Shown here: positions 6,000-31,043 of the stretch, piece after piece
Layout of the letters: each line of letters starts with the position of its first letter
Position numbering within the stretch: the stretch's first letter is position 1
Origin: a virus
Strand: one strand, 5' to 3'
Length of the DNA stretch: 64,000 bases
Virus record (IMG/VR): IMGVR_UViG_3300046808_001035
The notes under the pieces: generated by a model
Seen by the model: only the letters and a program-made list of their open reading frames with translations
What the model was told of the DNA's origin: nothing
Databases searched by the model: none
Program-made: the position numbers and the translations under genes

Positions 6000-6405
6000 G
6001 GTGGACCCGAGGGGAGTCGAACCCCTGTCTCAAGTAATCTATTAACAGATACCTCTACACGCTTAGTATTATTTGATATCGCGGTTATCGTGGCAATACC
6101 TCCAACCGTTCGGCCTATAAGTGACCGACTCTTGCTGCAGGGTTCTACAAGGCTTTACAGTCTAGCCTCAACCTATTGCGGTTTCCTAGAGTTTTAATAG
6201 TATCCGCTCCAGGTAGACTAAGCAGCGAGGGCTTCAGCCGCCTCAAACTCAAAAGAGTTCAAGAGCGCGTCAGCTTCAGCTACCGTCATAGCATACGAAT
6301 TGTCGTTTGCTTTTATTGTTTGTCCAGATGTTTTAGCGAGGCCAACCAGACTTCCTCGGCGTGCAGTACCTGATTTCAACTCTTGATCGAAACCAGTACG
6401 GGCCC
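6000..6405 (-). ncRNA. ssrA: Phage-encoded tmRNA (one-piece, about 406 nt)
   Basis: 5' end GGGCCCGTACTGGTTTCGA; 3' T-arm GACAGGGGTTCGACTCCCCTCGGGTCCACC; acceptor stem GGGCCCG/CGGGTCC with the G3:U alanine determinant and discriminator A; internal tag frame starting at a GCA resume codon and ending ALAA-stop. The terminal A of CCA is not encoded. Confidence 0.93.
6218..6310 (-). other. tmRNA proteolysis tag reading frame (A)ANDNSYAMTVAEADALLNSFEFEAAEALAA
   Basis: Resume context AATAAAA-GCA-AAC-GAC; 30 codons then TAG; C-terminal LAA. Confidence 0.85.
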
Positions 6406-10285: not shown

Positions 10286-13200
10286 TTAAGTCTGCTTATT
10301 AAAGTAATCCGGATACCTGGCTCGGAATGCTGATAGTTGTGCAGCTGTGGGCGGCTGAAAAGGTGTAGGCGTCCAATAGCCGTCCCAGGCGTATGGGGCG
10401 GCTGGAGCTCCACTCCAATTATAATTTACTTTAGGTGCTTCTACACTTACTCGACCCGAAGATAATGGAGGAGAAGCATAGAACTCTGTACCTAACGTAT
10501 GCATCGTGTTTAAATAATAAGGAACTATCGGTCCAATGTTCAGTGTAGGTATACCGAACTCAGGTTCGATGTCCATGCAAGTAATAAACTCTAATTGCCG
10601 TGGGTCTATAGCTCCTTCAACAGTTTTCAGCTTCGGCCAATCCCTATCGAATAGTGTCATACTGAGCAGCGCTCTGTTTGGGCCGTATACATCCTCGAGC
10701 ATAAGTGATTGGTGTCTCCATACGTCAGGAAACGCGGGTGTGCTGCGTAAGGTGTCGTAAATATGATATGCTCCGTGATTAAACTCTGTTAAGCGCTCAT
10801 TGCCTAGCTCGTCAAATGTGTTAGTTCCGAATCCTCCAATACTATCTATCATCGATTTATTGTACCTAGCAAACCAACGCCACTGCAGATCGTTTTCTCC
10901 TCGAAAACGCCAGCCTAGAAAAACATTAGATGGTAGTCTGTACACTTCAATATCGTATGATAAATTCATACCAGGAAGCCCTCCCAGCGCCTTTAGTCTT
11001 AGCTCGAACTCTGCTGTAGACCTGGACAGCGGAGCAACACGTACCCCGAACCCGCCTGCAGTAAAATATGTAGGTCCTGGCGGAACATCAGCCGGTACAT
11101 AAAATTCTTCTGTTAGCGGTAGGCCTATGGCTGGGTCTATGACAGTTAGGTATCCGCTGGAGTATTGCTTTTCACTAAGATACTTGAGATGTAATGGTCT
11201 TACTGGGCGAGGCATGCATGCCCACCAGCAAGGTTGCATCGGGAACGGGACGGTTGCCTTTTGATTTAGGTCTGTGTGTAAGGTTATAGTTTGGCTGGGG
11301 TGCGTAACTCCAGAACTATCTTTTGCGGCTAGAGTTAATTTAACCTCGTCTCCCGCACCAAACCCCATAATACGAATAGAGAGCATTTGCTTGCCTCCAG
11401 CTATAGGCTCACCCTCAAAAGGTAATCCTAGCGACGAAATATTTGTTGCTCTATTTGGTACAAAAGTTCTACACCATATATCGTATATGCAAGGCTTTAA
11501 CTGCCTACCGAAAAGCTCGGGATCGGGCGCAGGTAAGGTACCTACAGAAAACCCTCGACCATACACGGTGTGCTCGTAAGGATAATAGTCTTTGTTTATA
11601 GGTAGAGTTACTTCTTGTGTTATTGTAGAGGTGTCCCTGAAGCCGTCCGGTGTGTTGTATCCGGTGGGCCTATGCTCTAGCTTGTAATATATTTCTGTAT
11701 TTTTAGTGTCAACATACAGCTCAACAATTGAACATAAATACATTGTGTTGTCGTTATAGTACGCGCGAGAAGGAAGCACCGTAGGGCAGGAGCTGTTTAT
11801 TATTGTGATTCCTTTGTATCCTGCAGGTGGAGTTGATCCTGGGGGTGGCGCAGTGACTAGCTGTGGTCTGGCGACTACATAGTCAGTCGTTACCGTATAT
11901 GGAGCACTTGTAAAATAGTCGTTGTAGGCTACAAAAGTCATCTGGCAGTTCGCTACAAAGTCAGGCAATGTCGCACTGTCTGGTGTGAATGTGAAACTGC
12001 CTGCTGGAGTCATAGATGTTCTTACTGACAGGTCTTTTGCTTTTATACTGAATCTATCAAACACTGTAACAGTCCTAGATGTGTTGGCTATGGTATAGGT
12101 TACATCTACTTTCGTCACCAAGGACTGCATTCGTGCCAAGTTAGTTCCTATATAAGTGTTACTGGGGTTATTAGGGAGCTTGAGAGTAAATAGCTGTTTA
12201 TAAAAAAAGCCAGCTTGTTCTGCGCGTGTTAACTGTACCCAGTCTGAAGGCATTGTCACGGAACTGGGAGCTATATAGTGCATTATTGAGTTGGCTAATC
12301 CGACTCCTGAGCTCGGGGTTACAACCTCTCCAGATGATGCTCCAAAATTAATCGCACTTAGTGATAAGTGTACAACGTCACCATAGTTAAATGTGTGAGG
12401 TAATTGATAAGTTACTAGCCCTGGTGTTGCAGGCGCTGGAATATAAAATTTAGATGGTAACAAACTATCGATTGTATATTCGTAGTGCGTAACAGGTGAA
12501 CCGCCGTTGTTAAGTGGAGGATTAAAGGTTAATATTAGCTGTGTAGGATTGCCTGGAGCAGCGGCTAAACTCAATGCGCCTGTGGGTGCAGGTGCAGTTA
12601 TCGGAAAAGCGGTGACCCTATTAGATACACGCCAGCCTCCAGCAGCATTAATTGCTCTTATTACTACGTTCGCTGAAGCCCCATTACTCTTGGGGGTCGC
12701 TAATAGTATATAATTGTCAATGACTGCAGATGTGCTGTTTTGCCAGGTGGTGCCGCCATCTACTGTATAGTCGTAGCTGATTATTGGAGAGCCTCCGTTT
12801 GAAGCTGGTGGTGTAAAGTGTACTGTAGCTGTTGCTAGTTTTGTAGAGTCTACAACTACTTGTGTGATTGTGGGCTCTGAAGGTACAGTGTAAGGAGTGG
12901 CTGAAACAGCTGCTGAAGGACTTCCCATGCTTCTGAGGTTTTCAGCCTTCAGTAACACAGAGTAACTTTGACCATTAACTAGATTAGATATGGTGATGGG
13001 GTTAGCTGCAGCTGTGGGGGCATTTGATAGCTCTATGTAGTTTGTGCCTCCATCTATAGAGTAGTGATATTTTATTATCTGTGAGCCTCCGTCAGAAAGA
13101 GGGGGATTAAAATAAACTTTAAGCTCTCCTCCTCCACCCAGCCATCCTGCACCACGCTGAATGGAAGTGATTACAGGTGCCGACGGTTGTCCTGATATCC

Positions 13201-15121
13201 CTGGAGCTGTGTTAGAAGCTGCTCCAATCCCTGACGGATTGATTGCGCGTACCGTTATGTTATATAGCGTGTCGTTAAGTGTGCCTGTGATGGTTATGGG
13301 GCTAGTTGTTACTCCACTAGACACGTAAGGAGCGCCGTTCAATGAGTACTCATAATCAAGGATAACTCCTCCTGGCACCACTGGCTGCGAAAACTGAACA
13401 ACTAGTGAGTTATTTAGACCTGACACAGAGAATATTGTCGGCGCTGTGGGAGCTTCTCCACCAGTAATCACATTAACAGGGTCCGATTCCTTGGCGTAGT
13501 CTTGGCCGTTGACGCCCTTAAGCCTAACCTTGTATGGAGTTCCTGGGGTTAGTCCTGTTACAGTTATAATGTTATTTGTAGCCTGCACTGTCGAGCTATA
13601 CGTAAACCCATCATCTAAAGAATACTGATAGCCTGTAGCCGGAATGGTCCCTGGTCTGGAGGGTGGAGTAAAATTTATAAGTATACTGGTAGAGCTTAGA
13701 ACATCTACAGTTACGTTTGTGGGTGCGTCCAACGGAGGTCCGTCAGGGTCATTAGTGTATATCCACGCTTCTGAAAGCTGCCCTTGTCCTACAGAATTAA
13801 CAGCGGCAGCAGCCACAGGTACATAAACCATGGTTGATGAACCTTGCGGAATTTCGTATATATCATAAGCCATATCAAATATTCGGATAGCTCCCTGTCT
13901 CGTACCGTCGTTGGGATTTGGCTCGAATATAATAGCTGCTCTATAAGACCTCAGGTCAGTAGTAGGCGGATTGTACCAAGTACCTTCATCCACTAATTCA
14001 ATATTGCTGGTTGTAGAATCGTCAATAGATGCGACAACATGTGTAATAGGAGACCCTCCATCGTCTTGAGCCAAAAAGGTTATGTAAAAATTTGGTGACT
14101 CTCTGCCTAGGTCTGGCGCACTATAATGAAAATCTACGTGCGTAATTTTAAGCGGTTCTGGAGCTGTTTTTAGTGTTGTGCCTAAAGCTATGGCTGAAGC
14201 TGCTCCTGCGCCGCCTGCGTTGATTGCGCGCATTTGCACTCTATATTCTTTGTTACTTGCGAGACCAGAGATTATCAGAGGACTTGATAGGTCTGCCTCA
14301 GGACTGCGAGTTTTCCATCTATTTGAATTGAGTTTATACTGGTATCTTGTGACTGGATACCCGTTGGTTTTGGTCGGTGGAGTAAAATCTAAAGTTAGCT
14401 GCTTTACACCTGAGGTTACCTGCGTGATTCGTGGAGCGGATGGAGTTAAGCCTTCTGAAGGAATTCCCTCCACTACGTTAGACGGCTCTCCGGTACCTAC
14501 CTCATTAACAGCATACAAAATAACAGAATACTTTGTACCATTAGTTAAATTCTCTATGTCTATAGGACTTTCAGTGCTATCGTAAGTTAACTTAGTGGCT
14601 CCGTTATTTATAGAATATTTGTAGCCAGTGATAGGCTTGCCTCCGTCGACTGCGGGAGGAGTAAACGCTACAGTTAAAGACGAATTGCCTGCCGATACGT
14701 TAGTGATTGTTGGGGCAAATGGAGCCTCAAAATTAGGCACACCCGAAAGTTCTACAGACTCTTGACCTCCTCCATGTTGTGTTTCTGTGCGTATTTTAAG
14801 TCTATAGCTTGTTAAATTAGTAAGTCCTCCTATCACTATAGGACTAGTTGTTTTTGCTGGAGATAAAGACACCCACGCTCTTGTATCGTTGGTGTTAGCC
14901 TCCCATATCATATAGCTGTAATTCACTATAGGGGATCCTCCTGGGGCTTCTGGAGGAGTAAATTTAACTACCAACCGCTCGTTTCCTGAAACAACTGACG
15001 CTCCTGTAGGAGCTGCGGTTGTGCCTGGGATACCTGCTGCAGGTAGAGATGGCTGGCTTACATCCCCAGATTCGTACACAGCCACGATTTTAACGTTATA
15101 TGGTGTCCCGTTGTTGAGCAT
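10286..15121 (-). CDS. Large FN3-repeat fibre/adhesin, distal part (1611 aa)
   Basis: Begins with the last two strands of an FN3 domain, then about 9 FN3 repeats (PxAPxI...FTPP..GG.PI..Y.YS...L.NG..Y.V...A.N..G), then about 650 aa of non-repetitive putative receptor-binding region. Confidence 0.85.
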   Translation of the reverse strand: MLNNGTPYNVKIVAVYESGDVSQPSLPAAGIPGTTAAPTGASVVSGNERLVVKFTPPEAPGGSPIVNYSYMIWEANTNDTRAWVSLSPAKTTSPIVIGGLTNLTSYRLKIRTETQHGGGQESVELSGVPNFEAPFAPTITNVSAGNSSLTVAFTPPAVDGGKPITGYKYSINNGATKLTYDSTESPIDIENLTNGTKYSVILYAVNEVGTGEPSNVVEGIPSEGLTPSAPRITQVTSGVKQLTLDFTPPTKTNGYPVTRYQYKLNSNRWKTRSPEADLSSPLIISGLASNKEYRVQMRAINAGGAGAASAIALGTTLKTAPEPLKITHVDFHYSAPDLGRESPNFYITFLAQDDGGSPITHVVASIDDSTTSNIELVDEGTWYNPPTTDLRSYRAAIIFEPNPNDGTRQGAIRIFDMAYDIYEIPQGSSTMVYVPVAAAAVNSVGQGQLSEAWIYTNDPDGPPLDAPTNVTVDVLSSTSILINFTPPSRPGTIPATGYQYSLDDGFTYSSTVQATNNIITVTGLTPGTPYKVRLKGVNGQDYAKESDPVNVITGGEAPTAPTIFSVSGLNNSLVVQFSQPVVPGGVILDYEYSLNGAPYVSSGVTTSPITITGTLNDTLYNITVRAINPSGIGAASNTAPGISGQPSAPVITSIQRGAGWLGGGGELKVYFNPPLSDGGSQIIKYHYSIDGGTNYIELSNAPTAAANPITISNLVNGQSYSVLLKAENLRSMGSPSAAVSATPYTVPSEPTITQVVVDSTKLATATVHFTPPASNGGSPIISYDYTVDGGTTWQNSTSAVIDNYILLATPKSNGASANVVIRAINAAGGWRVSNRVTAFPITAPAPTGALSLAAAPGNPTQLILTFNPPLNNGGSPVTHYEYTIDSLLPSKFYIPAPATPGLVTYQLPHTFNYGDVVHLSLSAINFGASSGEVVTPSSGVGLANSIMHYIAPSSVTMPSDWVQLTRAEQAGFFYKQLFTLKLPNNPSNTYIGTNLARMQSLVTKVDVTYTIANTSRTVTVFDRFSIKAKDLSVRTSMTPAGSFTFTPDSATLPDFVANCQMTFVAYNDYFTSAPYTVTTDYVVARPQLVTAPPPGSTPPAGYKGITIINSSCPTVLPSRAYYNDNTMYLCSIVELYVDTKNTEIYYKLEHRPTGYNTPDGFRDTSTITQEVTLPINKDYYPYEHTVYGRGFSVGTLPAPDPELFGRQLKPCIYDIWCRTFVPNRATNISSLGLPFEGEPIAGGKQMLSIRIMGFGAGDEVKLTLAAKDSSGVTHPSQTITLHTDLNQKATVPFPMQPCWWACMPRPVRPLHLKYLSEKQYSSGYLTVIDPAIGLPLTEEFYVPADVPPGPTYFTAGGFGVRVAPLSRSTAEFELRLKALGGLPGMNLSYDIEVYRLPSNVFLGWRFRGENDLQWRWFARYNKSMIDSIGGFGTNTFDELGNERLTEFNHGAYHIYDTLRSTPAFPDVWRHQSLMLEDVYGPNRALLSMTLFDRDWPKLKTVEGAIDPRQLEFITCMDIEPEFGIPTLNIGPIVPYYLNTMHTLGTEFYASPPLSSGRVSVEAPKVNYNWSGAPAAPYAWDGYWTPTPFQPPTAAQLSAFRARYPDYFNKQT

Positions 15122-18100
15122 TAAATGGGAATGGTTAGAGAAGTTACAGGGAAAGCTGCGACGTTGAATGGGATGTACACTCCTGTGTCTGTGTTAGTAT
15201 ACACATTGTATTTGTAATCTACAATAGGTTGTACGTGATTACCTGGAGGAAGTATATTTAATGTTAATGTGCTGTCTTCTGGTACAACTCTAGTTATTTC
15301 AGGAATGCTGCCTAGTCCTCTTCCCACCCCTGCAGGCGAGGATGGTGTACCTGCACCCACAGCGTTCACTGCCCGAATGCGTATAGAATGCCTTGTATTC
15401 GCTCTCAGCGCTGTAGTTAAAATTAAAGGACTCTGCGTACTAGGAGGATTGAGAGGTGCCCATGTGTTAGCTCCGTCGAGTGAATACTCATGGTTCAGTA
15501 ATGGCGAACCTCCGTCCTCAGGAAGAGTGAAGCTTATTTGCACGGAGCTTGATGTTGCACTAATAAAGTCAATTACTGGAGCTGCTGGTGCGCCTGCAAT
15601 TATAGTGAAAGTAGCTGACGCAGGGCTGTCGCCGTTAGCGTTGGTAGCCTTCAGGGACACGCCGTATGTTTTACCTATTTCAAGCCCCGGCAGATCAAAT
15701 GGATTGTCTACACTATTCGTGGCTGTAAAGGTAACGCCATCTAAAGAATATTTGTAACCGATGATAGCAGAACCTCCGTCGTTACTTGGAACTGTGAAAT
15801 GTACCGAGGGTACGTTATTCACAGTCACAATCTTATTAATTGTTGGCGCTGACGGTAGATTCGTCGGGGTGCCTGTTACAGAATTCGATGCTGCACTATT
15901 ACCTGCCGAGCTAATTGCGCGCATCTGTACACTATAACTCGTATAATTCGTTAATCCTGTAATTTCAAAAGGAGATACTAGACTGTTTACAGGTATGTAT
16001 GAAACGCCAGAATCGATCGAGTACTCGTAGTTTGTTATAGCTGCGCCGCCTGAGCTGCTTGGTTGCGTAAAATTAACTGTGAGTTTACGGTCACCGCTTA
16101 CTAGACTGGTGATTGTAGGTGATAATGGTGCTCCTGGAGTAACAGATACCTCTTGTGAAAAGTCACCAGCACCATAAGAGTTAATTGCACAAATTTTGAC
16201 CGAGGTGACTTGTCCTGCGACCAGTCCTGTAATATCCATGATTATAGCTGTGCTGGCTGGAGATAGTGTTGTAAATTTAGCTACACCTCCTGCGGGTGTG
16301 GTTAGGTGGCCGTAATTGGTTATGGCTGCTCCTCCGTTTGAACTTGGTGGTGCAAAGCGTACTCGAGCTCCTGTAGGGGTACTACCTATCGAAAGAATGG
16401 TTGGTGCTGGAGGTGGACCAACCGGGACAGCTTGTACTGTGTTTGATGCTGGGCCTGTACCAGCATAATTTAGCGCCCTCAAGGACACAAAATAAGTAGT
16501 ACCATTAACAAGACCGTCAATTATAAGATATGGGGCCTCTGTCGAGTCGTCGGGAAGAGCTCCAACATTAGGTTCGCCTGCAGGCTGGTATGTTTGTCCT
16601 CCATTTAAAGAATATTCATAACCTGTAATAATGCTTCCGCCATTGTCTACAGGCGCAACAAAAATAAGCTGTAGCTTGTTTCGTTTGCTGTACACCTTAG
16701 CTATTTTTGGCGCGGTTGGAGGTGCGGCAGGAACAAAAGAAACGCTGGCAGACTCGCTACCTGCACCTGCGATGTTTACAGCTCGCAGCTTTAAATAGTA
16801 AAACTTACCGTTAGTTAGGCTAGGTATGTTAAACGATGTGCTATTGCTTGCAGGGTTTCTAGATACCCAGGCATCTGAATTGAGTTGATACTGATAGTTT
16901 GTTATAGCTGCCCCTCCTGAGCTTAGCGGAGCAGTGAATTGTACAGCCGCAGATTTGTTTCCTGCGGTAGCGATCAGGTCTATAGGCGCGGTGGGAACCG
17001 TTCTGGGTGTGCCTGATAGACTATTACTAGGCTTACCTAGGCCTACAGCAGTCCTAGCTTTAAGCAGGACGCTGTAGGCTGTACCATTAGTCAATCCTGT
17101 AATATCAAAGCTACCTGTAGTAGGTGATAGATCTGTGACTGTAGCAACAGCGTAAGTTCTGCCTGAGTCTATAGAGTAGCTGTAGTTTTGTAGCGGTAGT
17201 CCTCCGAGAAAAGGAGATTTTGTAAACAGTACCGAAAGCTGGGCATTACCTGGAGTAACTGAGGTTATCGTTGGGGCTGCTGCTAGAGCGGCAGGTGTGC
17301 CTAGCGCAGCCAATGAGGCTTCACCGTCTCCAGCTGCACTTACTGCCTTGAGTTTTACTGAATACTCCGTACCGTTAGTTAGTCCTGTAATCACTACAGG
17401 AGAGCCTGTCTTGGTTGGCGTTATAGGTAGCCATGCGCCATCATCTAACTGGTATTTGTAATTGGTTACTAGCAAGACTCCATTTATAGGTTGAGTAAAA
17501 TAGGCTGTTAATTGTGTGTCACCAGAAGTGAGTTCTAGTCCTGTAGGCGCTAAAGGTAAACCCATCGGGGTGCCTATAAGAACATTTGAGCCTACACTAA
17601 ACTTGCCTGCAACATTTACAACCTGAAGAGCTACGTAATAAGAAGTACCATTAGTTAATCCTGTAATCTCTAAAGGACTGGTTAAAGATGGAGTTGCGTT
17701 ATAGTTATAGGTAGCTCCTCCGTTTATTGAATAGCCTACGTTATACAGGTCAGCGCTACCTGTGTCTGTGGGTAATGTAAAGGCAACAGTTAGTTTGCTG
17801 TCTCCTGCGGTGATGTCTGAGATCGTGGGCGGATCAGGGCTTACAGCCAAAACTACAGTGTAAACTGCAGAAGCTGCGCTTTCACCGAAAATGTTGACTG
17901 CTTTTAAGGCTACTGAGTAGCTTTGTTCTAAAACCAGAGAAGGGATGAGTATGGGGCTTGAAGCATAGTCGGTAGCTATAAATGTTGTGCCTCCGTCTAT
18001 TGAGTATTTGTAGCTTGTGATGTCTACTCCACCTGTTTCTACTGGAGCTGAGAAAAATATGGTCGCTGAAGTGCCTACGGTGGCGTACGAGGTGATTGTT

Positions 18101-21100
18101 GGAGATCCTGGAACTGTGCCGGGTATAGCTTTTACAATCAAAGACTCTGACCCTCCTCCTGAAGGGTTCACAGCTCTGATGGTTATATTATAGGTGGTGC
18201 CGTTCACTAGATCAAAAATTCCATCAGCTGTAACATGCTTCGTAATCTCTAGTGGGCTGGTTGTCTGTTCAGGTACAAAAGCTGTCCAGTGCTCGCCTAA
18301 GTCTGTCGAGTACTCGTAATTGGTTATAGCTCTACCTCCGTCGTCGCTCGGAGGAGAGAAAAGCACAATTAACTTTTTATCCTCTGAAGTTACGCTGTTT
18401 ATTGTAGGCTTTGAGGCTTTTCGTGAAGGCACAGCCAGAAGAGTGGAGTTGACAACATCCACGGTGCCTGCAGGGACAACTATTTGCGGTGGGGCGAAAG
18501 AGAAGAACTCTGAAGAAGGGCTGATTGTTTTGGCTCCGCTTCCATAAACATACAGCTCGTAAAATCCGTAAGAATCGGTTGTAGTTATCTCCTCACCATC
18601 AGTTATAGTCACTCCTTGCACACCTTCTTCTGAAGGAGCTAAAACATAACCGCTAATCAGCCTTGTATCCAGGCGTACAGCAAAGTTAATACCTACTTGA
18701 TTAGAGCTAACAATTTGTACTTTTTGGAAAGTTGGAATGACTGAGTATATATTATTTGACGCTACGATGTTATAACCTCCTGACGAAAGTCCTGTTAACG
18801 TGTACTCGCCAGCAGCGTTTGTGACTGCCTGCTTGTCTCTGCCGTCAGTTATCACTATATCTGCTACAGGGTCTAAAGAGGCATCTAGTACTGTACCTGA
18901 CACTGAGTAGGAGACGGGTAAGACTTCTACACGTATAACTATACTAGCAGAACCACTGTTTGCTGAAGTTGCGTTGATAGTGACACTGTATTTACCTATT
19001 GATGTGGGGGAGCCAGCAAGTGCTCCGTTCGAATATACTATTCCTGGAGGTAAATTTGTAACAGATAAACTTACCGCATCTCCGGCCAGTGTAGGTGAGG
19101 CTACTACTTGAGCTAAAGTTGATGTAGGTGCATCAACCTGTAGTGCAAACCTTGAGTTAGGTGCGGGGGTTATTAAACTTAAAGGTACACTCAGATTGAG
19201 TGTCTCGACTACAGATGTGCCTAAGTTATTTGAAGCTGTTATTGATACGATATAAGTTCCTGCAGCCACATCCAAACCTACACTACCAGTAATATACCCA
19301 GAAGAAGAGCACACCAATCCTGTAGGTAGTCCTACGGCGATAAAGTTTGTTGGAGAATTAAGCGCAGTTACTTTGAATAAAGGGGTTTTCTCTGTGTATG
19401 CGTAGCCTCTGGTAACGTTGAGGGTTGTGTTAGGTAAAATGTTATTTATTACAGGAACACCTTCACTGTAAAATACCAGAGTTATAGAGCGAGTGTCGTT
19501 ACCTACAGGGTTGTAGACACCTAGACGAATAGGATAAGTTAGCGTAAACGATGACCCTAGTGAATTTGTTGGTAGTGCGCTGTCGGCTAGCTTTCCGTAA
19601 ATTTTACCTGTATATCGCTCTAGCTGAAGCCCTGCAGGGAGACCTGCAGCCATATAATAATTACGAGTAGCATCTGTTAGCCCTGGAGCAAAATTGTCTG
19701 TCCCACCATAAGCCTGAAGTGACGCGGCTGTAATTAGTGGAGCTGCGCTAGTTGTGGTGTTGTCTACTTCTAGCTCTAAAACCAGCCCCTCTACAGGTGC
19801 AGTGAACTGAGGTTTTGCATGTACCTGATAAGATATAGTGAAACTTACAGTATTAGAAGTGCCATAGACGTTATCAGCCGTCACAAACAGTTGAGTCGAC
19901 CCTGGTGTTGAGGCTGTCACTCTACCTGTAACTTTACCTGTGCTGCGATCAAAAGAAAGTCCTGGAGGTAGTGTGCCTTGAAGGTCGTAGCCGAATATAG
20001 GGAGATTGATGGCTGTAAAAGCTACGAGCGGCGTGGCTAGCGTATGAAGATCTAGGTTGTTCGTTAAATATATCTCATTCGCAGGCGGAGAAACTAGAGA
20101 TATTATAGGCTCAGCCTCTACAGCTACAGCAAAAGTAACTGTCTGCGGATTTGAGGCACTACCTGACGGATTTATTGCGTTGAATGTGAGTTCAAATACG
20201 GAGCCTGGAAGTATACTTGAAGGTAACTGACCTGTTAAATTGCCTGTAGTTTCAGAAAAAGAGAGCCCGTCAGGCAGTATTGATGGGGATACTGTGTACT
20301 TGAAAGAAGCTGCATTAAAATCAGGAGACTCTGTAAACAGAGTCATATTAGTTGCTGAAACCTGGATTATAGGATTCTCTGCGGTATAAACAGAACTTTT
20401 ACTTAAAATTAAAGGGTTAACTGGAGAAAATCTTCCGCTTTGGGGTACAAGAATTTCTGGAGCTGCGATATAGTCTATCAAAAGCTGCCATATAGCTGTA
20501 CCTGCTGCGGAAGTTTTGAAGTATGCATTATACCTTTGGCTTGTGGCTTCTGACGCTGTTGCTGACGCGGATAGTGTCAGTATATTAGAGGGTTGATCGA
20601 AATTAGCAAGCAGCCATGCAGGCGTATTTCCGTAAAAGTCGGATATGCTTGCGACAGGGTCAGGGAACGCAATCTGCTCGTGGAAGAGTGAGCTATTTTG
20701 TTGCGTTACTACATATCTCTCAATTCCTCCTGTAGCTGTACCTGGACACGCACCTCCGACTATCTCAGGAAGTGAGAATATCTCGCCAACCATTAACCAA
20801 GCGTCAGAAACCTTCTCAAATACTGAAACATCTAAAAATCCGCCATCTGTTTCGCAGGTAATAGCAAAAACAGTGCTAATAAAGACATACTCTCTGCAGT
20901 TTAATAAAACTTCAGAAGTGCCAGACATGTTGATGCTGTCGGCCTTAGCAATTTTAAACTGACTGATTTGTCTTAGTGCAGGGGATGGATTAAATACCGC
21001 CCGAACAGGGACTACTCTTGCTGAAGGGTTGTATATTGCTACAACAATAGCCAAATTCGTACCATACACACCATCAGGAGTGTATGCCTCGTTGGTCGAG

Positions 21101-22467
21101 TATGATATCTGGTGATATATTTTTAAAAAGTTTTCTGCGTTTTTATTGTAGCTTAGCGTCGCGCAATTCAGGTTAGATATTACTCCATTATCTAAAACTC
21201 TGAAAGATAGTAAGCCGCTAGGATCTGCAGGAGGCGGAGGCGTACTGTCTAACCGTACACGGTAAGAATCTACTACCTCGACAATCTTATAGTTCCTAAC
21301 TGTTATGTTGTCGTAATAAAGCTGTAGCGTACGGCCTTCGTGATAGTTCTTTAAAAAATGCTCACCGCACCCTATATATGTAAGAGGATCTGCAGGATCG
21401 TCGCATCGCGCAAAGACAGCGTCACCAGTAACACAAAAAGCGGCGGCAGTAAACAGCTTTAAAAAGCTAGAGCCTTTTCCTCGAGTTTCGACACTTCTAG
21501 TGATTAGAGTGTCCAGCTCTTTGGCTCCGTCAGCCACTCGGTTAAGATAGTGTGCGTAAGCTCCTAGATTTTCTGGAGGACACTTAGGCTTGCAAAAATT
21601 TTCGAATGTAATAGCGTGACCTACATTTACAGCGTCAAACGTCGATGTTGTTGTGGGACTCGTATATATTTCAAATGTTCTATACTTCGTTAAAAGATCG
21701 CCGTATAAAGTTTCTGCGTTACTGGTTAACACGTTAGCTGTATAGCAGCTGGACGGGTTTAAAAATAAGGCACCTTCTTCATTAGGAGTGACTAGATTTA
21801 AGCTGTACAAGTCTTCAATCTCTCCTGGTTTCGTACAAGGGTCGTACAACCCTGCGCCTGCCCCTCTAGCTACAAGCAAGTCTACGCTATTTTGTCCTAC
21901 TTGCACTGCGTCCGTATTATGGTTTGCTTTTACAGTAGGTACTTCAGGGTAGTTATAAACCATCAGTACTTCTGTAGTGGGACTAGTTGAAACTTTAGGG
22001 TCAAAAGAAATACTTTCAAAAGTTAATGTTTTTAACCTAGGAGAGTTTAGGGTGACGGCAGATGAGGCTAGCGAGGCTTCAGAGGACGTATACACCTGTT
22101 CAAAATCTTGCTTAGCTATCAGGCCTGCTCCTAGTATAATTTTGACGGCGAACAGCTCAAACGCGAGACCTACAAAGCTTTCCCCACTGTTCTTATAGTG
22201 ATTGACTACTTTGTCTGGAGGAATTAGAGCTGTACCTAGAAGTTCTTCGCTTTCTAAATTTGAAAAGGCTATTTCTAGGCCTGCTAATGAAGTCTTTTTT
22301 ATCTTCGAAATATATACACCTCTAATACTGTCATCAAAAGAAGTGAATAGAATATCTAGAAACCAGTTGTCTGCTATAGGATGGTTATTACCATCAGCTA
22401 TAGCTCGGCGAGCTTTAAAAGGGTAAGATATAAGCTCGTTAGATGTAAGATACTCCAGGACTCCCAT
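15121..22467 (-). CDS. Giant tail fibre/adhesin (2448 aa): anchor module, Ig-like repeats, FN3 repeats
   Basis: N-terminal LEYLTSNELISYPF family module; about 5 He_PIG-like repeats (LPxGLxxxxxTGxxxG); 2 carboxypeptidase-regulatory-like domains (SGxVL...V.ITDG); 11 full FN3 repeats plus a truncated twelfth. Confidence 0.85.
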   Translation of the reverse strand: MGVLEYLTSNELISYPFKARRAIADGNNHPIADNWFLDILFTSFDDSIRGVYISKIKKTSLAGLEIAFSNLESEELLGTALIPPDKVVNHYKNSGESFVGLAFELFAVKIILGAGLIAKQDFEQVYTSSEASLASSAVTLNSPRLKTLTFESISFDPKVSTSPTTEVLMVYNYPEVPTVKANHNTDAVQVGQNSVDLLVARGAGAGLYDPCTKPGEIEDLYSLNLVTPNEEGALFLNPSSCYTANVLTSNAETLYGDLLTKYRTFEIYTSPTTTSTFDAVNVGHAITFENFCKPKCPPENLGAYAHYLNRVADGAKELDTLITRSVETRGKGSSFLKLFTAAAFCVTGDAVFARCDDPADPLTYIGCGEHFLKNYHEGRTLQLYYDNITVRNYKIVEVVDSYRVRLDSTPPPPADPSGLLSFRVLDNGVISNLNCATLSYNKNAENFLKIYHQISYSTNEAYTPDGVYGTNLAIVVAIYNPSARVVPVRAVFNPSPALRQISQFKIAKADSINMSGTSEVLLNCREYVFISTVFAITCETDGGFLDVSVFEKVSDAWLMVGEIFSLPEIVGGACPGTATGGIERYVVTQQNSSLFHEQIAFPDPVASISDFYGNTPAWLLANFDQPSNILTLSASATASEATSQRYNAYFKTSAAGTAIWQLLIDYIAAPEILVPQSGRFSPVNPLILSKSSVYTAENPIIQVSATNMTLFTESPDFNAASFKYTVSPSILPDGLSFSETTGNLTGQLPSSILPGSVFELTFNAINPSGSASNPQTVTFAVAVEAEPIISLVSPPANEIYLTNNLDLHTLATPLVAFTAINLPIFGYDLQGTLPPGLSFDRSTGKVTGRVTASTPGSTQLFVTADNVYGTSNTVSFTISYQVHAKPQFTAPVEGLVLELEVDNTTTSAAPLITAASLQAYGGTDNFAPGLTDATRNYYMAAGLPAGLQLERYTGKIYGKLADSALPTNSLGSSFTLTYPIRLGVYNPVGNDTRSITLVFYSEGVPVINNILPNTTLNVTRGYAYTEKTPLFKVTALNSPTNFIAVGLPTGLVCSSSGYITGSVGLDVAAGTYIVSITASNNLGTSVVETLNLSVPLSLITPAPNSRFALQVDAPTSTLAQVVASPTLAGDAVSLSVTNLPPGIVYSNGALAGSPTSIGKYSVTINATSANSGSASIVIRVEVLPVSYSVSGTVLDASLDPVADIVITDGRDKQAVTNAAGEYTLTGLSSGGYNIVASNNIYSVIPTFQKVQIVSSNQVGINFAVRLDTRLISGYVLAPSEEGVQGVTITDGEEITTTDSYGFYELYVYGSGAKTISPSSEFFSFAPPQIVVPAGTVDVVNSTLLAVPSRKASKPTINSVTSEDKKLIVLFSPPSDDGGRAITNYEYSTDLGEHWTAFVPEQTTSPLEITKHVTADGIFDLVNGTTYNITIRAVNPSGGGSESLIVKAIPGTVPGSPTITSYATVGTSATIFFSAPVETGGVDITSYKYSIDGGTTFIATDYASSPILIPSLVLEQSYSVALKAVNIFGESAASAVYTVVLAVSPDPPTISDITAGDSKLTVAFTLPTDTGSADLYNVGYSINGGATYNYNATPSLTSPLEITGLTNGTSYYVALQVVNVAGKFSVGSNVLIGTPMGLPLAPTGLELTSGDTQLTAYFTQPINGVLLVTNYKYQLDDGAWLPITPTKTGSPVVITGLTNGTEYSVKLKAVSAAGDGEASLAALGTPAALAAAPTITSVTPGNAQLSVLFTKSPFLGGLPLQNYSYSIDSGRTYAVATVTDLSPTTGSFDITGLTNGTAYSVLLKARTAVGLGKPSNSLSGTPRTVPTAPIDLIATAGNKSAAVQFTAPLSSGGAAITNYQYQLNSDAWVSRNPASNSTSFNIPSLTNGKFYYLKLRAVNIAGAGSESASVSFVPAAPPTAPKIAKVYSKRNKLQLIFVAPVDNGGSIITGYEYSLNGGQTYQPAGEPNVGALPDDSTEAPYLIIDGLVNGTTYFVSLRALNYAGTGPASNTVQAVPVGPPPAPTILSIGSTPTGARVRFAPPSSNGGAAITNYGHLTTPAGGVAKFTTLSPASTAIIMDITGLVAGQVTSVKICAINSYGAGDFSQEVSVTPGAPLSPTITSLVSGDRKLTVNFTQPSSSGGAAITNYEYSIDSGVSYIPVNSLVSPFEITGLTNYTSYSVQMRAISSAGNSAASNSVTGTPTNLPSAPTINKIVTVNNVPSVHFTVPSNDGGSAIIGYKYSLDGVTFTATNSVDNPFDLPGLEIGKTYGVSLKATNANGDSPASATFTIIAGAPAAPVIDFISATSSSVQISFTLPEDGGSPLLNHEYSLDGANTWAPLNPPSTQSPLILTTALRANTRHSIRIRAVNAVGAGTPSSPAGVGRGLGSIPEITRVVPEDSTLTLNILPPGNHVQPIVDYKYNVYTNTDTGVYIPFNVAAFPVTSLTIPI

Positions 22468-27900: not shown

Positions 27901-29514
27901 TTAAGTGATGTTAATACCGATATTGTCTATCGGCTGTACAGCGCCGTTTTCTACTCTGTAGTAATCTATAAAGTAGTTTGTGGTTTTAGGGCTGACGCCT
28001 TTAGGTATGTCGTAAGGCATCAATAGCGCATCATCGCTGTTTAAATATATGACAGAGCCGTCTGGTGCTAGAATTTGACCACTCATAGCGATAGGTAGGT
28101 CGACCCGTTTGATGTTATAGTTGTGACACAACTTAATAATGTTTGAAGCATACAGCTGCTCGCCAAACGGTATAGTATTCACATAGTTAAAAATATCTTT
28201 TTTTAACTGCTGTAAGTTTAGCGAAGCGTATGTATCTATAGGATTTTTCTTAACTAGATTAATCTGCATTGTAACCAAGCAGGGTACAACCGCTTTAACC
28301 AGATAGTCTGCGCAAGCCAGCCGCTGAGAGTCTATAAGCAGCAAGTCCTGCATTTCGAGAAGATTTGGCTGCCCTAAAATATGTAGTTCAAAGTCTAGTT
28401 CAGTCACATTGGCTGGAGCTTCATACTGAAATGTGACTGTGGCTGTTTGATATTTAGAGAACCTTGCATCTCTATCAGTCAAACCTTCATTATTACGTTG
28501 TCCGTAAAAAATAGAATGCCCGAAAGTTGTGTTTTTGATTATCAGCGTTCCGCCAAAACTAATATCTGTAGTCTTTGGTATGATAGACTGAATATAGTAG
28601 AACCCTGGCGCATCCGTATTCGCGATAAACACCTGCCATATGTTTTGAGCTGCGTCAACCAACGTACCTTTTTTTGTTACGGCCAACGTTTGAAGCCCTA
28701 GGCTGCTACGGACATATACATCAGCCTTACCAAATGTAGCTATACCGAAAATGTTTTGCTTATCTCTCTGCATCTCATCGTCGTTGGCTCCACAAACAGA
28801 AAGCTCTTGGAAGCCCACAAAAGTGTCTTTAAACTTATTACGTATTCCGAATTCAGACTCGAGTTTACTATTACCTATATTACTCTTCAGCTTAGCGATA
28901 AGTTGCTTATCTGTTTCTGGGGCTCGGCCTCCAGAGAAGTTGCCGTAAGCTTCTGCGCGTACAAAGTCTCTCAAGTAATATTTTTCAGGTATAGAAAACA
29001 CCGTACCTGAAGGTATTTGGTAGTCTGGTCCAGAGTTCTCGGCCTCTACATCTAGAATAAAATAATATAGCCCTTGATCGCTGTACACCTGAATCTCTTC
29101 GAGAACTGCCGATGGGTTAGGGCTAGCGTAAGTATCTTTAGATACGAGAAAGTTTAAGTTTAAAGCCGACTGAACAAACGTGAACCCTTGGTTTAAATTA
29201 TACTCAGACGCTGAAGAGACAGTAACACGTATTCTCCCAGTAACCTTCGAGCCTCGACTTCTGTATGTGTTGTAATTAGACGCCACCTTATCTATGGCTT
29301 CTGAATATGTGTCTTCGGTAGAATTTAATGCGGTAGCTATAGCGTTTGACTGACTTAACTCTGTAATACGATTGTACTGCTCATTTTGTATGGTGGCGGC
29401 CAGCTTGATAAGTAACTCACTAATGACTGAACCTGGCCCTGTCTCAATATCTGTAAAATTTTGAGCTATAAACGCGGTTATTCTATCTACAGTATTCTCG
29501 AATGATTCTGCCAT
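27901..29514 (-). CDS. Baseplate J-like wedge protein
   Basis: DIETGPGSVISELLIK, IDKVASNYNTYR, VEAENSGPDYQI, FSGGRAPETDKQL, GKADVYV match baseplate J hallmarks. Confidence 0.85.
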   Translation of the reverse strand: MAESFENTVDRITAFIAQNFTDIETGPGSVISELLIKLAATIQNEQYNRITELSQSNAIATALNSTEDTYSEAIDKVASNYNTYRSRGSKVTGRIRVTVSSASEYNLNQGFTFVQSALNLNFLVSKDTYASPNPSAVLEEIQVYSDQGLYYFILDVEAENSGPDYQIPSGTVFSIPEKYYLRDFVRAEAYGNFSGGRAPETDKQLIAKLKSNIGNSKLESEFGIRNKFKDTFVGFQELSVCGANDDEMQRDKQNIFGIATFGKADVYVRSSLGLQTLAVTKKGTLVDAAQNIWQVFIANTDAPGFYYIQSIIPKTTDISFGGTLIIKNTTFGHSIFYGQRNNEGLTDRDARFSKYQTATVTFQYEAPANVTELDFELHILGQPNLLEMQDLLLIDSQRLACADYLVKAVVPCLVTMQINLVKKNPIDTYASLNLQQLKKDIFNYVNTIPFGEQLYASNIIKLCHNYNIKRVDLPIAMSGQILAPDGSVIYLNSDDALLMPYDIPKGVSPKTTNYFIDYYRVENGAVQPIDNIGINIT

Positions 29515-30000: not shown

Positions 30001-30411
30001 CTAGTCTAGATTTTTTTTGAATAGCTCAAACAGTCCGTGAGCCTGTCCTGCGGTAGCCATAACACGTGCCCCTTTTTGGGAAAGGTCATCTCTATAGAAA
30101 TGAATTCTGCCTTTATATCTTTGTACGAAAGATTTTTTGAAGCTGTATAGCATACTGACTTCGGCCTTTACTGCACTCAAGCCTTTTCTGGACTTAGGGT
30201 CTTCGTCTTTATATCTGGTACGATACTCTTTATTGAGGTCTTCGGAGTCGGTGATCTTTCTAAGATCCGCAAGAATTAGTTTTTTACTATAATCTATAGC
30301 TTTTAAAAACCATGTGCGTCCTCTGAAATCGTTTGCGAGACGAGCTTCAGGGATCGAGGACTCAAACAGATCCGCGATATCGAATAACACATCTGATATT
30401 TTTTTATACAT
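30001..30411 (-). CDS. Hypothetical basic protein
   Basis: 136 aa, TAATG-coupled to the sigma factor gene. Confidence 0.7.
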   Translation of the reverse strand: MYKKISDVLFDIADLFESSIPEARLANDFRGRTWFLKAIDYSKKLILADLRKITDSEDLNKEYRTRYKDEDPKSRKGLSAVKAEVSMLYSFKKSFVQRYKGRIHFYRDDLSQKGARVMATAGQAHGLFELFKKNLD

Positions 30412-31043
30412 TACTTCCAGCCTTTCGACAAAGTTGAGTTTATTAATTTTAACCTATTACTGAGGGTGCTCACAGACAAATTTAACTTTTTTGCTAGCTG
30501 TGTATTATCTAGAATTGGTTTACCTCCAAACCCTGTTTTATGTTCGAAGATCAACTTGTCTTTATCTGACAGATCATGATAAACAAACTGAACCCACTCG
30601 TCATTCTGGCTTGAAAATAGAGTAGGGGAGTCGAACAGCGAAGAAATACCTGTACTAGTCTTCTTGCTCTTCAGCGTGTTAGTGACTGCTTTCACAGACA
30701 TTCCTGAGTGATGTGATAGCTCTTCTGTTGTTGGAGTGCGCCCGAGCTGATGTTCTAGGTCTTTTTCTAGCTTGTTAAGTTTATTTAAATCAAACTGGGT
30801 GTTTTCTGGTGTTCGCAACACAGTCCCATATTTTGTAGATAACCTTGAAAGCTTTTTAAGACTGTTTACTAGGTGTGTACTAAATTTAATGCCAGAAGCT
30901 GCGTTATACGTTTTAGCTGCTTCTCTAGCCAGCTTGTAAGCCTCTAGTTGTACGGTGATCAGCGGCAGATTACTAGCATATCTGGATGCTTCAAGGTCGA
31001 TAAGTTTCTTATTATCCTTGATTAGTTTTTCTATGTTATTCAT
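30411..31043 (-). CDS. Sigma70-family RNA polymerase sigma factor
   Basis: Region 2 (AAKTYNAASGIKFSTHL), region 3 (LEHQLGRTPTTEELSHHSGMS), region 4 HTH (LSDKDKLIF...QLAKKLNLSVSTLSNR). Confidence 0.82.
   Translation of the reverse strand: MNNIEKLIKDNKKLIDLEASRYASNLPLITVQLEAYKLAREAAKTYNAASGIKFSTHLVNSLKKLSRLSTKYGTVLRTPENTQFDLNKLNKLEKDLEHQLGRTPTTEELSHHSGMSVKAVTNTLKSKKTSTGISSLFDSPTLFSSQNDEWVQFVYHDLSDKDKLIFEHKTGFGGKPILDNTQLAKKLNLSVSTLSNRLKLINSTLSKGWK

Follow-up and report, generated by a model that had tools for sequence, protein, structure and literature searches.

Two adjacent genes of the window (the whole 64,000-nt stretch of viral DNA analysed here) share a single FN3 domain. As a sequence-only reading had proposed, the upstream gene, A, ends with strands A to E of this domain, and the next gene, B, starts with strands F and G. 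The best reading of the arrangement, to which we give a probability of about 0.75, is that a gene was split by fission and that complementation between the fragments rescued it. The split has most likely been retained because the two halves rejoin after translation, fastening two proteins into one fibre. The features concerned are the following (window coordinates):

15121..22467, minus strand: gene A, 2448 aa, proximal chain of a putative baseplate-anchored fibre
20698..22467, minus strand: conserved N-terminal region of A, ~590 aa, beta-sandwich domains and helical segments
15334..18414, minus strand: eleven intact FN3 domains of A, residues 1352-2378
15124..15312, minus strand: acceptor half of the split FN3 domain, strands A-B-C-C'-E, A residues 2386-2448
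15119..15123, minus strand: TAATG stop-start overlap, B being in the -1 frame of A
10286..15121, minus strand: gene B, 1611 aa, distal chain, without the N-terminal module of A
15020..15121, minus strand: donor half of the split FN3 domain, EF loop and strands F-G, B residues 1-34
12329..15013, minus strand: further FN3 domains of B, about nine, residues 37-931
10289..12319, minus strand: variable C-terminal region of B, ~680 aa, non-FN3, putative host-contacting tip

Both genes sit in a minus-strand structural operon, downstream of baseplate genes that include a Baseplate_J-like gene (27901..29514, E 3e-4). In A, He_PIG and CarboxypepD_reg-like Ig domains precede the FN3 array, and the whole stalk of A plus B counts about 21 FN3 domains, the joint lying in series in its middle. 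A fold search with the model of the N-terminal ~590 aa of A (pLDDT 74) returned only weak, generic Ig-like matches; the position of the gene makes this region the probable virion anchor at the baseplate, and gene position together with domain content points to a virion role for A as a whole. A Pfam search of the C-terminal region of B gave no match, the model of this region is unreliable (pLDDT 42), and its atlas matches scored 0.80 or less. The distal end of B would bind the host receptor. A homologue search with the first 135 aa of B found nothing beyond B itself and generic FN3 proteins.

The halves were compared with a profile HMM of 90 positions built solely from 63 intact sibling FN3 domains. 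The last 63 aa of A matched positions 3-51 with 25 bits, and the first 32 aa of B positions 61-90 with 20 bits. Joined by an X, the two matched positions 3-90 with 47 bits, in the low range of the intact siblings against their own HMM (minimum 34, 5th percentile 42, median 80). The 84-position Pfam fn3 model also recognized the start of B, as its positions 56-81 (E 0.045), and the seven-strand pattern of FN3 (PF00041) is complete once both halves are combined. The one-base TAATG overlap between A and B, and its use in two ordinary gene pairs of the operon, at 30411 and 46834, were as initially described.

A single added base would open the frame, and an assembly indel or a recent frameshift mutation had been listed as the alternative to a true split. 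The junction was identical, with zero indels or substitutions, in contigs of four runs from two samples (depth 11-22), which may themselves be the source of the window, and gene B was present exactly in seven contigs. Since identical contigs may be source data, independent proof comes from relatives: four diverged phages from other studies are cut at the identical point. The break is thus not private to one assembly, and decay downstream of it was not found either. The conserved split leaves an indel or a recent inactivating mutation with virtually no probability. Other contigs of the same runs match the window at 12400-12417, 15201-15225, 17648-17667 and 17998-18018, in the same order, and perhaps derive from a co-occurring relative with a shorter stalk.

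The relatives were collected as follows. The N-terminus of A had no match among cultured phages, and a scan of viral contigs with it as a single sequence gave no matches; relatives of the window phage were reached via the RNA polymerase gene and alignments. A search with the first 580 aa of A yielded 39 clusters, in all of which the N-terminal region of A is kept. Orthologues of A range from 786 to 4062 aa, with the N-terminal 590 aa fixed.

Four of these relatives (L081, L082, L084 and L085) cut the same domain at the same point as the window, in answer to one of the checks suggested at the outset. Their A proteins are 2448-2452 aa long and 58-62% identical at the N-terminus, and the overlapping next gene (1608-1805 aa) opens with the F-G part. 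They come from unrelated samples, and their junction DNA is merely 60-70% identical; the overlap between A and B is 1 nt in the window and 8, 8, 11 and 8 nt in the others. In the four other split phages, the acceptor half shares 51-73% identity and the donor half 48-64%, and the FN3 stalks of all five are just 45-74% identical. Not one residue of the domain has been lost or duplicated in the five phages.

Fused orthologues also exist. Four of them (P0057, P0059, P0064 and P0065; 3852-4013 aa, 55-64% identical) read through the same domain and align to the joined halves with gaps no larger than 1-4 residues; B is collinear with their C-terminal part. Their size bears out the fibre of about 4000 aa that had been predicted for A plus B. 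In three relatives, the start Met of B aligns with a buried Leu of the EF loop in the fused forms, which suggests that the new N-terminal Met of B took over the position of this residue. Because most relatives have an unsplit gene and no cut extends beyond a small group, the fused form is likely ancestral. A single origin of the EF cut is compatible with the stalk tree, at weak support (57/69).

Substitutions were then counted among the five split phages. Synonymous differences were near saturation (pS 0.64-0.71, from pairwise counts that are mutually non-independent). The proportion of non-synonymous differences (pN) was 0.18 for strands A-E and 0.22 for the F-G part, versus 0.29-0.30 in the flanking intact domains. 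By these substitution counts, both halves are under purifying selection and more conserved than intact domains, and the split is old.

Programmed recoding, whether by frameshift, readthrough or bypass, would yield one fused protein in place of two chains. The initial statement that the junction has no X_XXY_YYZ slippery site was mistaken: a T TTC CCT heptamer is present at codon 2439, 10 codons before the stop, within the 24 codons over which the B frame is open ahead of its ATG. There is also a precedent in phage SPP1, where an FN3 domain is displayed on the tail via a frameshift, in the covalent product gp17.1* (PMC8718954). There, as here, the FN3 sequence comes from two reading frames; however, the SPP1 shift falls between domains, whereas here the break lies within a domain and has no conserved shift signal. 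As for the heptamer, A contains 18 of this form, the one near the junction is absent from the four split relatives, and a shift on it would replace the conserved strand E. The downstream RNA holds no stimulatory structure (z +0.95; 172 of 200 shuffles fold as well). Heptamer and hairpin were hence rejected as recoding signals, the first being unconserved and the second folding no better than shuffles. Moreover, B lies in the -1 frame in the window and in the +1 frame in all four split relatives, and since the offset differs among phages, there is no conserved frameshift. In L081 a stop codon sits immediately before the ATG of B. The junctions of G004 and G006, two relatives with other cuts described below, are in frame with two to four stops, and inspection by eye revealed no bypass landing codons in either. 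A well-placed ATG is present at every junction. Recoding is very improbable on this evidence. Overlapping stop and start codons are an established setting for translational coupling by stop and restart, and the simplest reading of the junction is that A and B are made in this way.

Inspection of the same gene in related phages revealed that other FN3 domains are split at three other loops. In L054 and L088, the cut falls after strand A (AB loop), with a 14-nt overlap, and the fused relatives are P0089 and P0093. In L087, known from one scaffold with a gap downstream, it falls after strand A of another domain, with a TAATG overlap, and the domain split in the window stays intact. In G006, the cut falls after strand C and is followed by a 93-aa addition; the genes are in frame, separated by two stops, and the next one begins with C'-E-F-G. 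In G004, the cut precedes the last part of strand G, in frame and with four stops, and its short donor makes it a weaker case of a complemented split. All cuts lie at or adjacent to loops. The split phages do not form one clade (AU p 5e-9), and unsplit genes ending in FN3 have whole domains at their C-termini. An FN3 domain tolerates being cut at several of its loops, which would explain the repeated survival of fissions among these phages.

The count of complemented splits leaves out the B/C junction of G004 as well as L086. In the latter, the gene breaks after strand F (L086:11357-11374), strand G is absent, and a gene of 3919 aa that opens with a whole FN3 domain follows; some breaks in this gene are thus uncomplemented. 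A mid-domain position alone proves nothing, since breaks in an FN3 array fall inside a domain by default. G004 (L033:1265-19901, L065:1393-12243) carries three giant genes in a row, of 2237 + 1773 + 3616 = 7626 aa; its second junction may be another split FN3 domain with an aromatic-rich module at the break, but it is ambiguous. A Trp/Gly/Tyr-rich module of ~40 aa occurs twice after the half-domain of G006 (L035:10098-10379). It is found once, as the true C-terminus, in the unsplit P0074 (L090:8001-14174), which also has ALTTAQ repeats.

Co-folding of the last 65 aa of A with the first 37 aa of B, which had been suggested as a check, gave a predicted complex that passed, with a score of 0.80 versus 0.02 for the best control. 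Contact agreement between runs was at least 94% and partner pLDDT at least 87. Of 80 solved complexes, 58 attained the same mark, as did 2 of 110 mismatched pairs. The contacts of lowest error join strand C of A (V2416-Y2423) with strand F of B (residues 8-15), in the native FN3 register. Because halves of a well-known fold may pass by likeness, this result speaks for compatibility and not for binding.

That the joint is predicted from models only, and that the L086 break has no visible complement, would fit a situation in which A and B are independent, the half-domains being relics or binding other partners, and B attaching elsewhere or remaining free. However, both halves are better conserved than their intact neighbours while synonymous sites are near-saturated, domain residues are neither lost nor repeated in five phages, and B has no anchor module of the A type. 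We consider independence of the two chains quite unlikely. The proposal that two polypeptides complete one FN3 domain is sustained by the conserved split, the purifying selection, the predicted co-fold and the rejection of the alternatives.

Under fission followed by complementation, events might have run as follows. An ancestral single gene of ~3900-4000 codons would have encoded a long Ig/FN3 baseplate appendage, and fission would have cut this gene within its twelfth FN3 domain, at the EF loop. Since then, A and B would have been translated as two chains, by coupled stop-restart. A would be fixed at the baseplate by its N-terminal region, and its stalk would end as an open sandwich. The F-G hairpin of B would insert into this incomplete sandwich at the C-terminus of A, with F pairing with C, and the resulting non-covalent joint would hang B on the end of A and restore the ancestral fibre. 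With B, the stalk would gain about ten domains and end in a variable tip. The location of A and B in the virion and their assembly in a 1:1 ratio are presumed in this scheme.

The further suggestion, of a distal half made swappable by the joint, found no support: the stalks on both sides of it share their history, and the tips of fused forms vary too. Trees of the stalk before and after the joint both separate the window phage, L081, L082 and L085 from L084 and the fused forms, with a support of 97 each, whereas a tree of the first 1350 aa of A mixes split and fused phages. As the stalk trees agree and the latter tree is mixed, recombination has acted ahead of the stalk and within B rather than at the joint. 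The tree topologies suggest an exchange near A residue 1350, where the Ig region gives way to the FN3 stalk. The tips of fused orthologues share 23-25% aligned identity between lineages and differ as much as those of split ones. Split phages show a single tip change, located deep within B; in L084, the C-terminal region of B is replaced by an Ig/I-set region.

The joint could still be adaptive for modularity, in that it would let phages exchange distal halves, attach a branch to the C-terminus set free by the cut, or form virions with fibres of both lengths, long and short. Fission recurs in separate lineages, the tip of L084 differs and contains Ig, and the acceptor of G006 carries two copies of the module that forms the C-terminus of P0074. 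This addition is the one hint of a gain, as if the cut had freed a terminus for a branch or extra tip. Yet the stalk trees on either side group the same four phages, recombination occurs around residue 1350 of A and inside B instead, the tips of fused forms vary equally, the majority of relatives are unsplit, and the new end of A carries no added tip in this clade. Adaptive modularity is for these reasons unlikely. A broader idea, somewhat less doubtful but still speculative, is that FN3 fission is a recurring, selected route to extend or branch fibres, as it provides a ready interface and a free C-terminus. If this were true, it would let several giant chains be linked to one another, such as 2237+1773+3616 aa in G004 and 2931+3919 aa in L086, to a length that exceeds the longest single gene observed, of 4062 aa.

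Several known systems complete a beta-sandwich in related ways. In chaperone-usher pili, the N-terminal extension of one chain completes the Ig-like fold of the next. Pili use one donated strand, form a homopolymer and depend on a chaperone and an usher, whereas here two strands are donated at one joint, which would have originated by fission. Polymerisation of the pilus type does not fit the present genes: A is an acceptor only, B a donor only, and the end of B is not FN3. A general scan of the neighbouring genes, which was not a dedicated search, recognised no chaperone or usher.

The closest likeness is to the siphophage Tuc2009, where a 25-residue C-terminal hairpin of BppU completes the sheet of BppA, forming a titin-like composite domain in the crystal structure (PMC4742702). 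In both cases, the complementary sandwich parts lie on two neighbouring genes, and a hairpin from one baseplate protein completes the beta-sandwich of another, here by prediction. In Tuc2009, the upstream structural protein donates its C-terminal hairpin to a small accessory protein, and the joint hangs this accessory adhesion protein on the virion. In contrast, here the distal chain would donate an N-terminal F-G hairpin, the joint is mid-stalk, fused orthologues exist, and the loop that is cut differs between lineages. Engineered split FN3 monobodies self-assemble, two loop-cut fragments refolding without a covalent link (PMC11666773), as is proposed for A and B. In that work the domain is the human tenth FN3 and the best cut is in the CD loop (PMC11666773), whereas the cut described here is natural and in the EF loop. 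No description of a split FN3 domain in a phage fibre stalk was found in the literature library searched, which is incomplete, and Tuc2009 was the only close case in it.

Sandwich completion is not new in principle: Tuc2009 and engineered FN3 already display it, so that the present case is less of a surprise. What appears new, against the literature searched, is an in-series joint in a long stalk, with fused beside split orthologues and independent cuts at four loop types in one family. The locus would show how a protein-protein joint arises from a domain core via gene fission, with at least four independent cut sites. It makes the evolution of an interface after fission testable, as well as the bearing of load by a non-covalent FN3 joint in a phage fibre. 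The natural split-FN3 pairs, of 65 + 37 residues, are candidate tag-and-catcher reagents. For annotation, a long phage fibre gene that breaks off in mid-domain should not by default be corrected for a frameshift error.

The window belongs to an uncultured tailed phage of fresh water, whose relatives have genomes of ~190-205 kb. Its genes include those for a terminase ATPase, a Baseplate_J-like protein, a head protease, a capsid protein, an RNA polymerase beta subunit and a tmRNA. Its cultured relatives are distant: the capsid protein shares only 26-28% identity with those of Salmonella phage Arash and of Vibrio phages D69, D148 and D181. The tmRNA, at 6000-6405, encodes a 30-residue tag. In the structural operon (7500-64000), most genes lack a Shine-Dalgarno motif, a possible hint of a host with SD-independent initiation; leaders are AT-rich, with gaps of 1-9 nt. 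A Sigma70-family gene (30411-31043) lies within the baseplate operon and is found at the same position in L081, L082, L085, L088 and L090. Finally, separate small FN3 genes (233-500 aa) are present far from the fibre locus in three genomes, at G006:98207-98476, G007:153123-153674 and G009:119428-119961.
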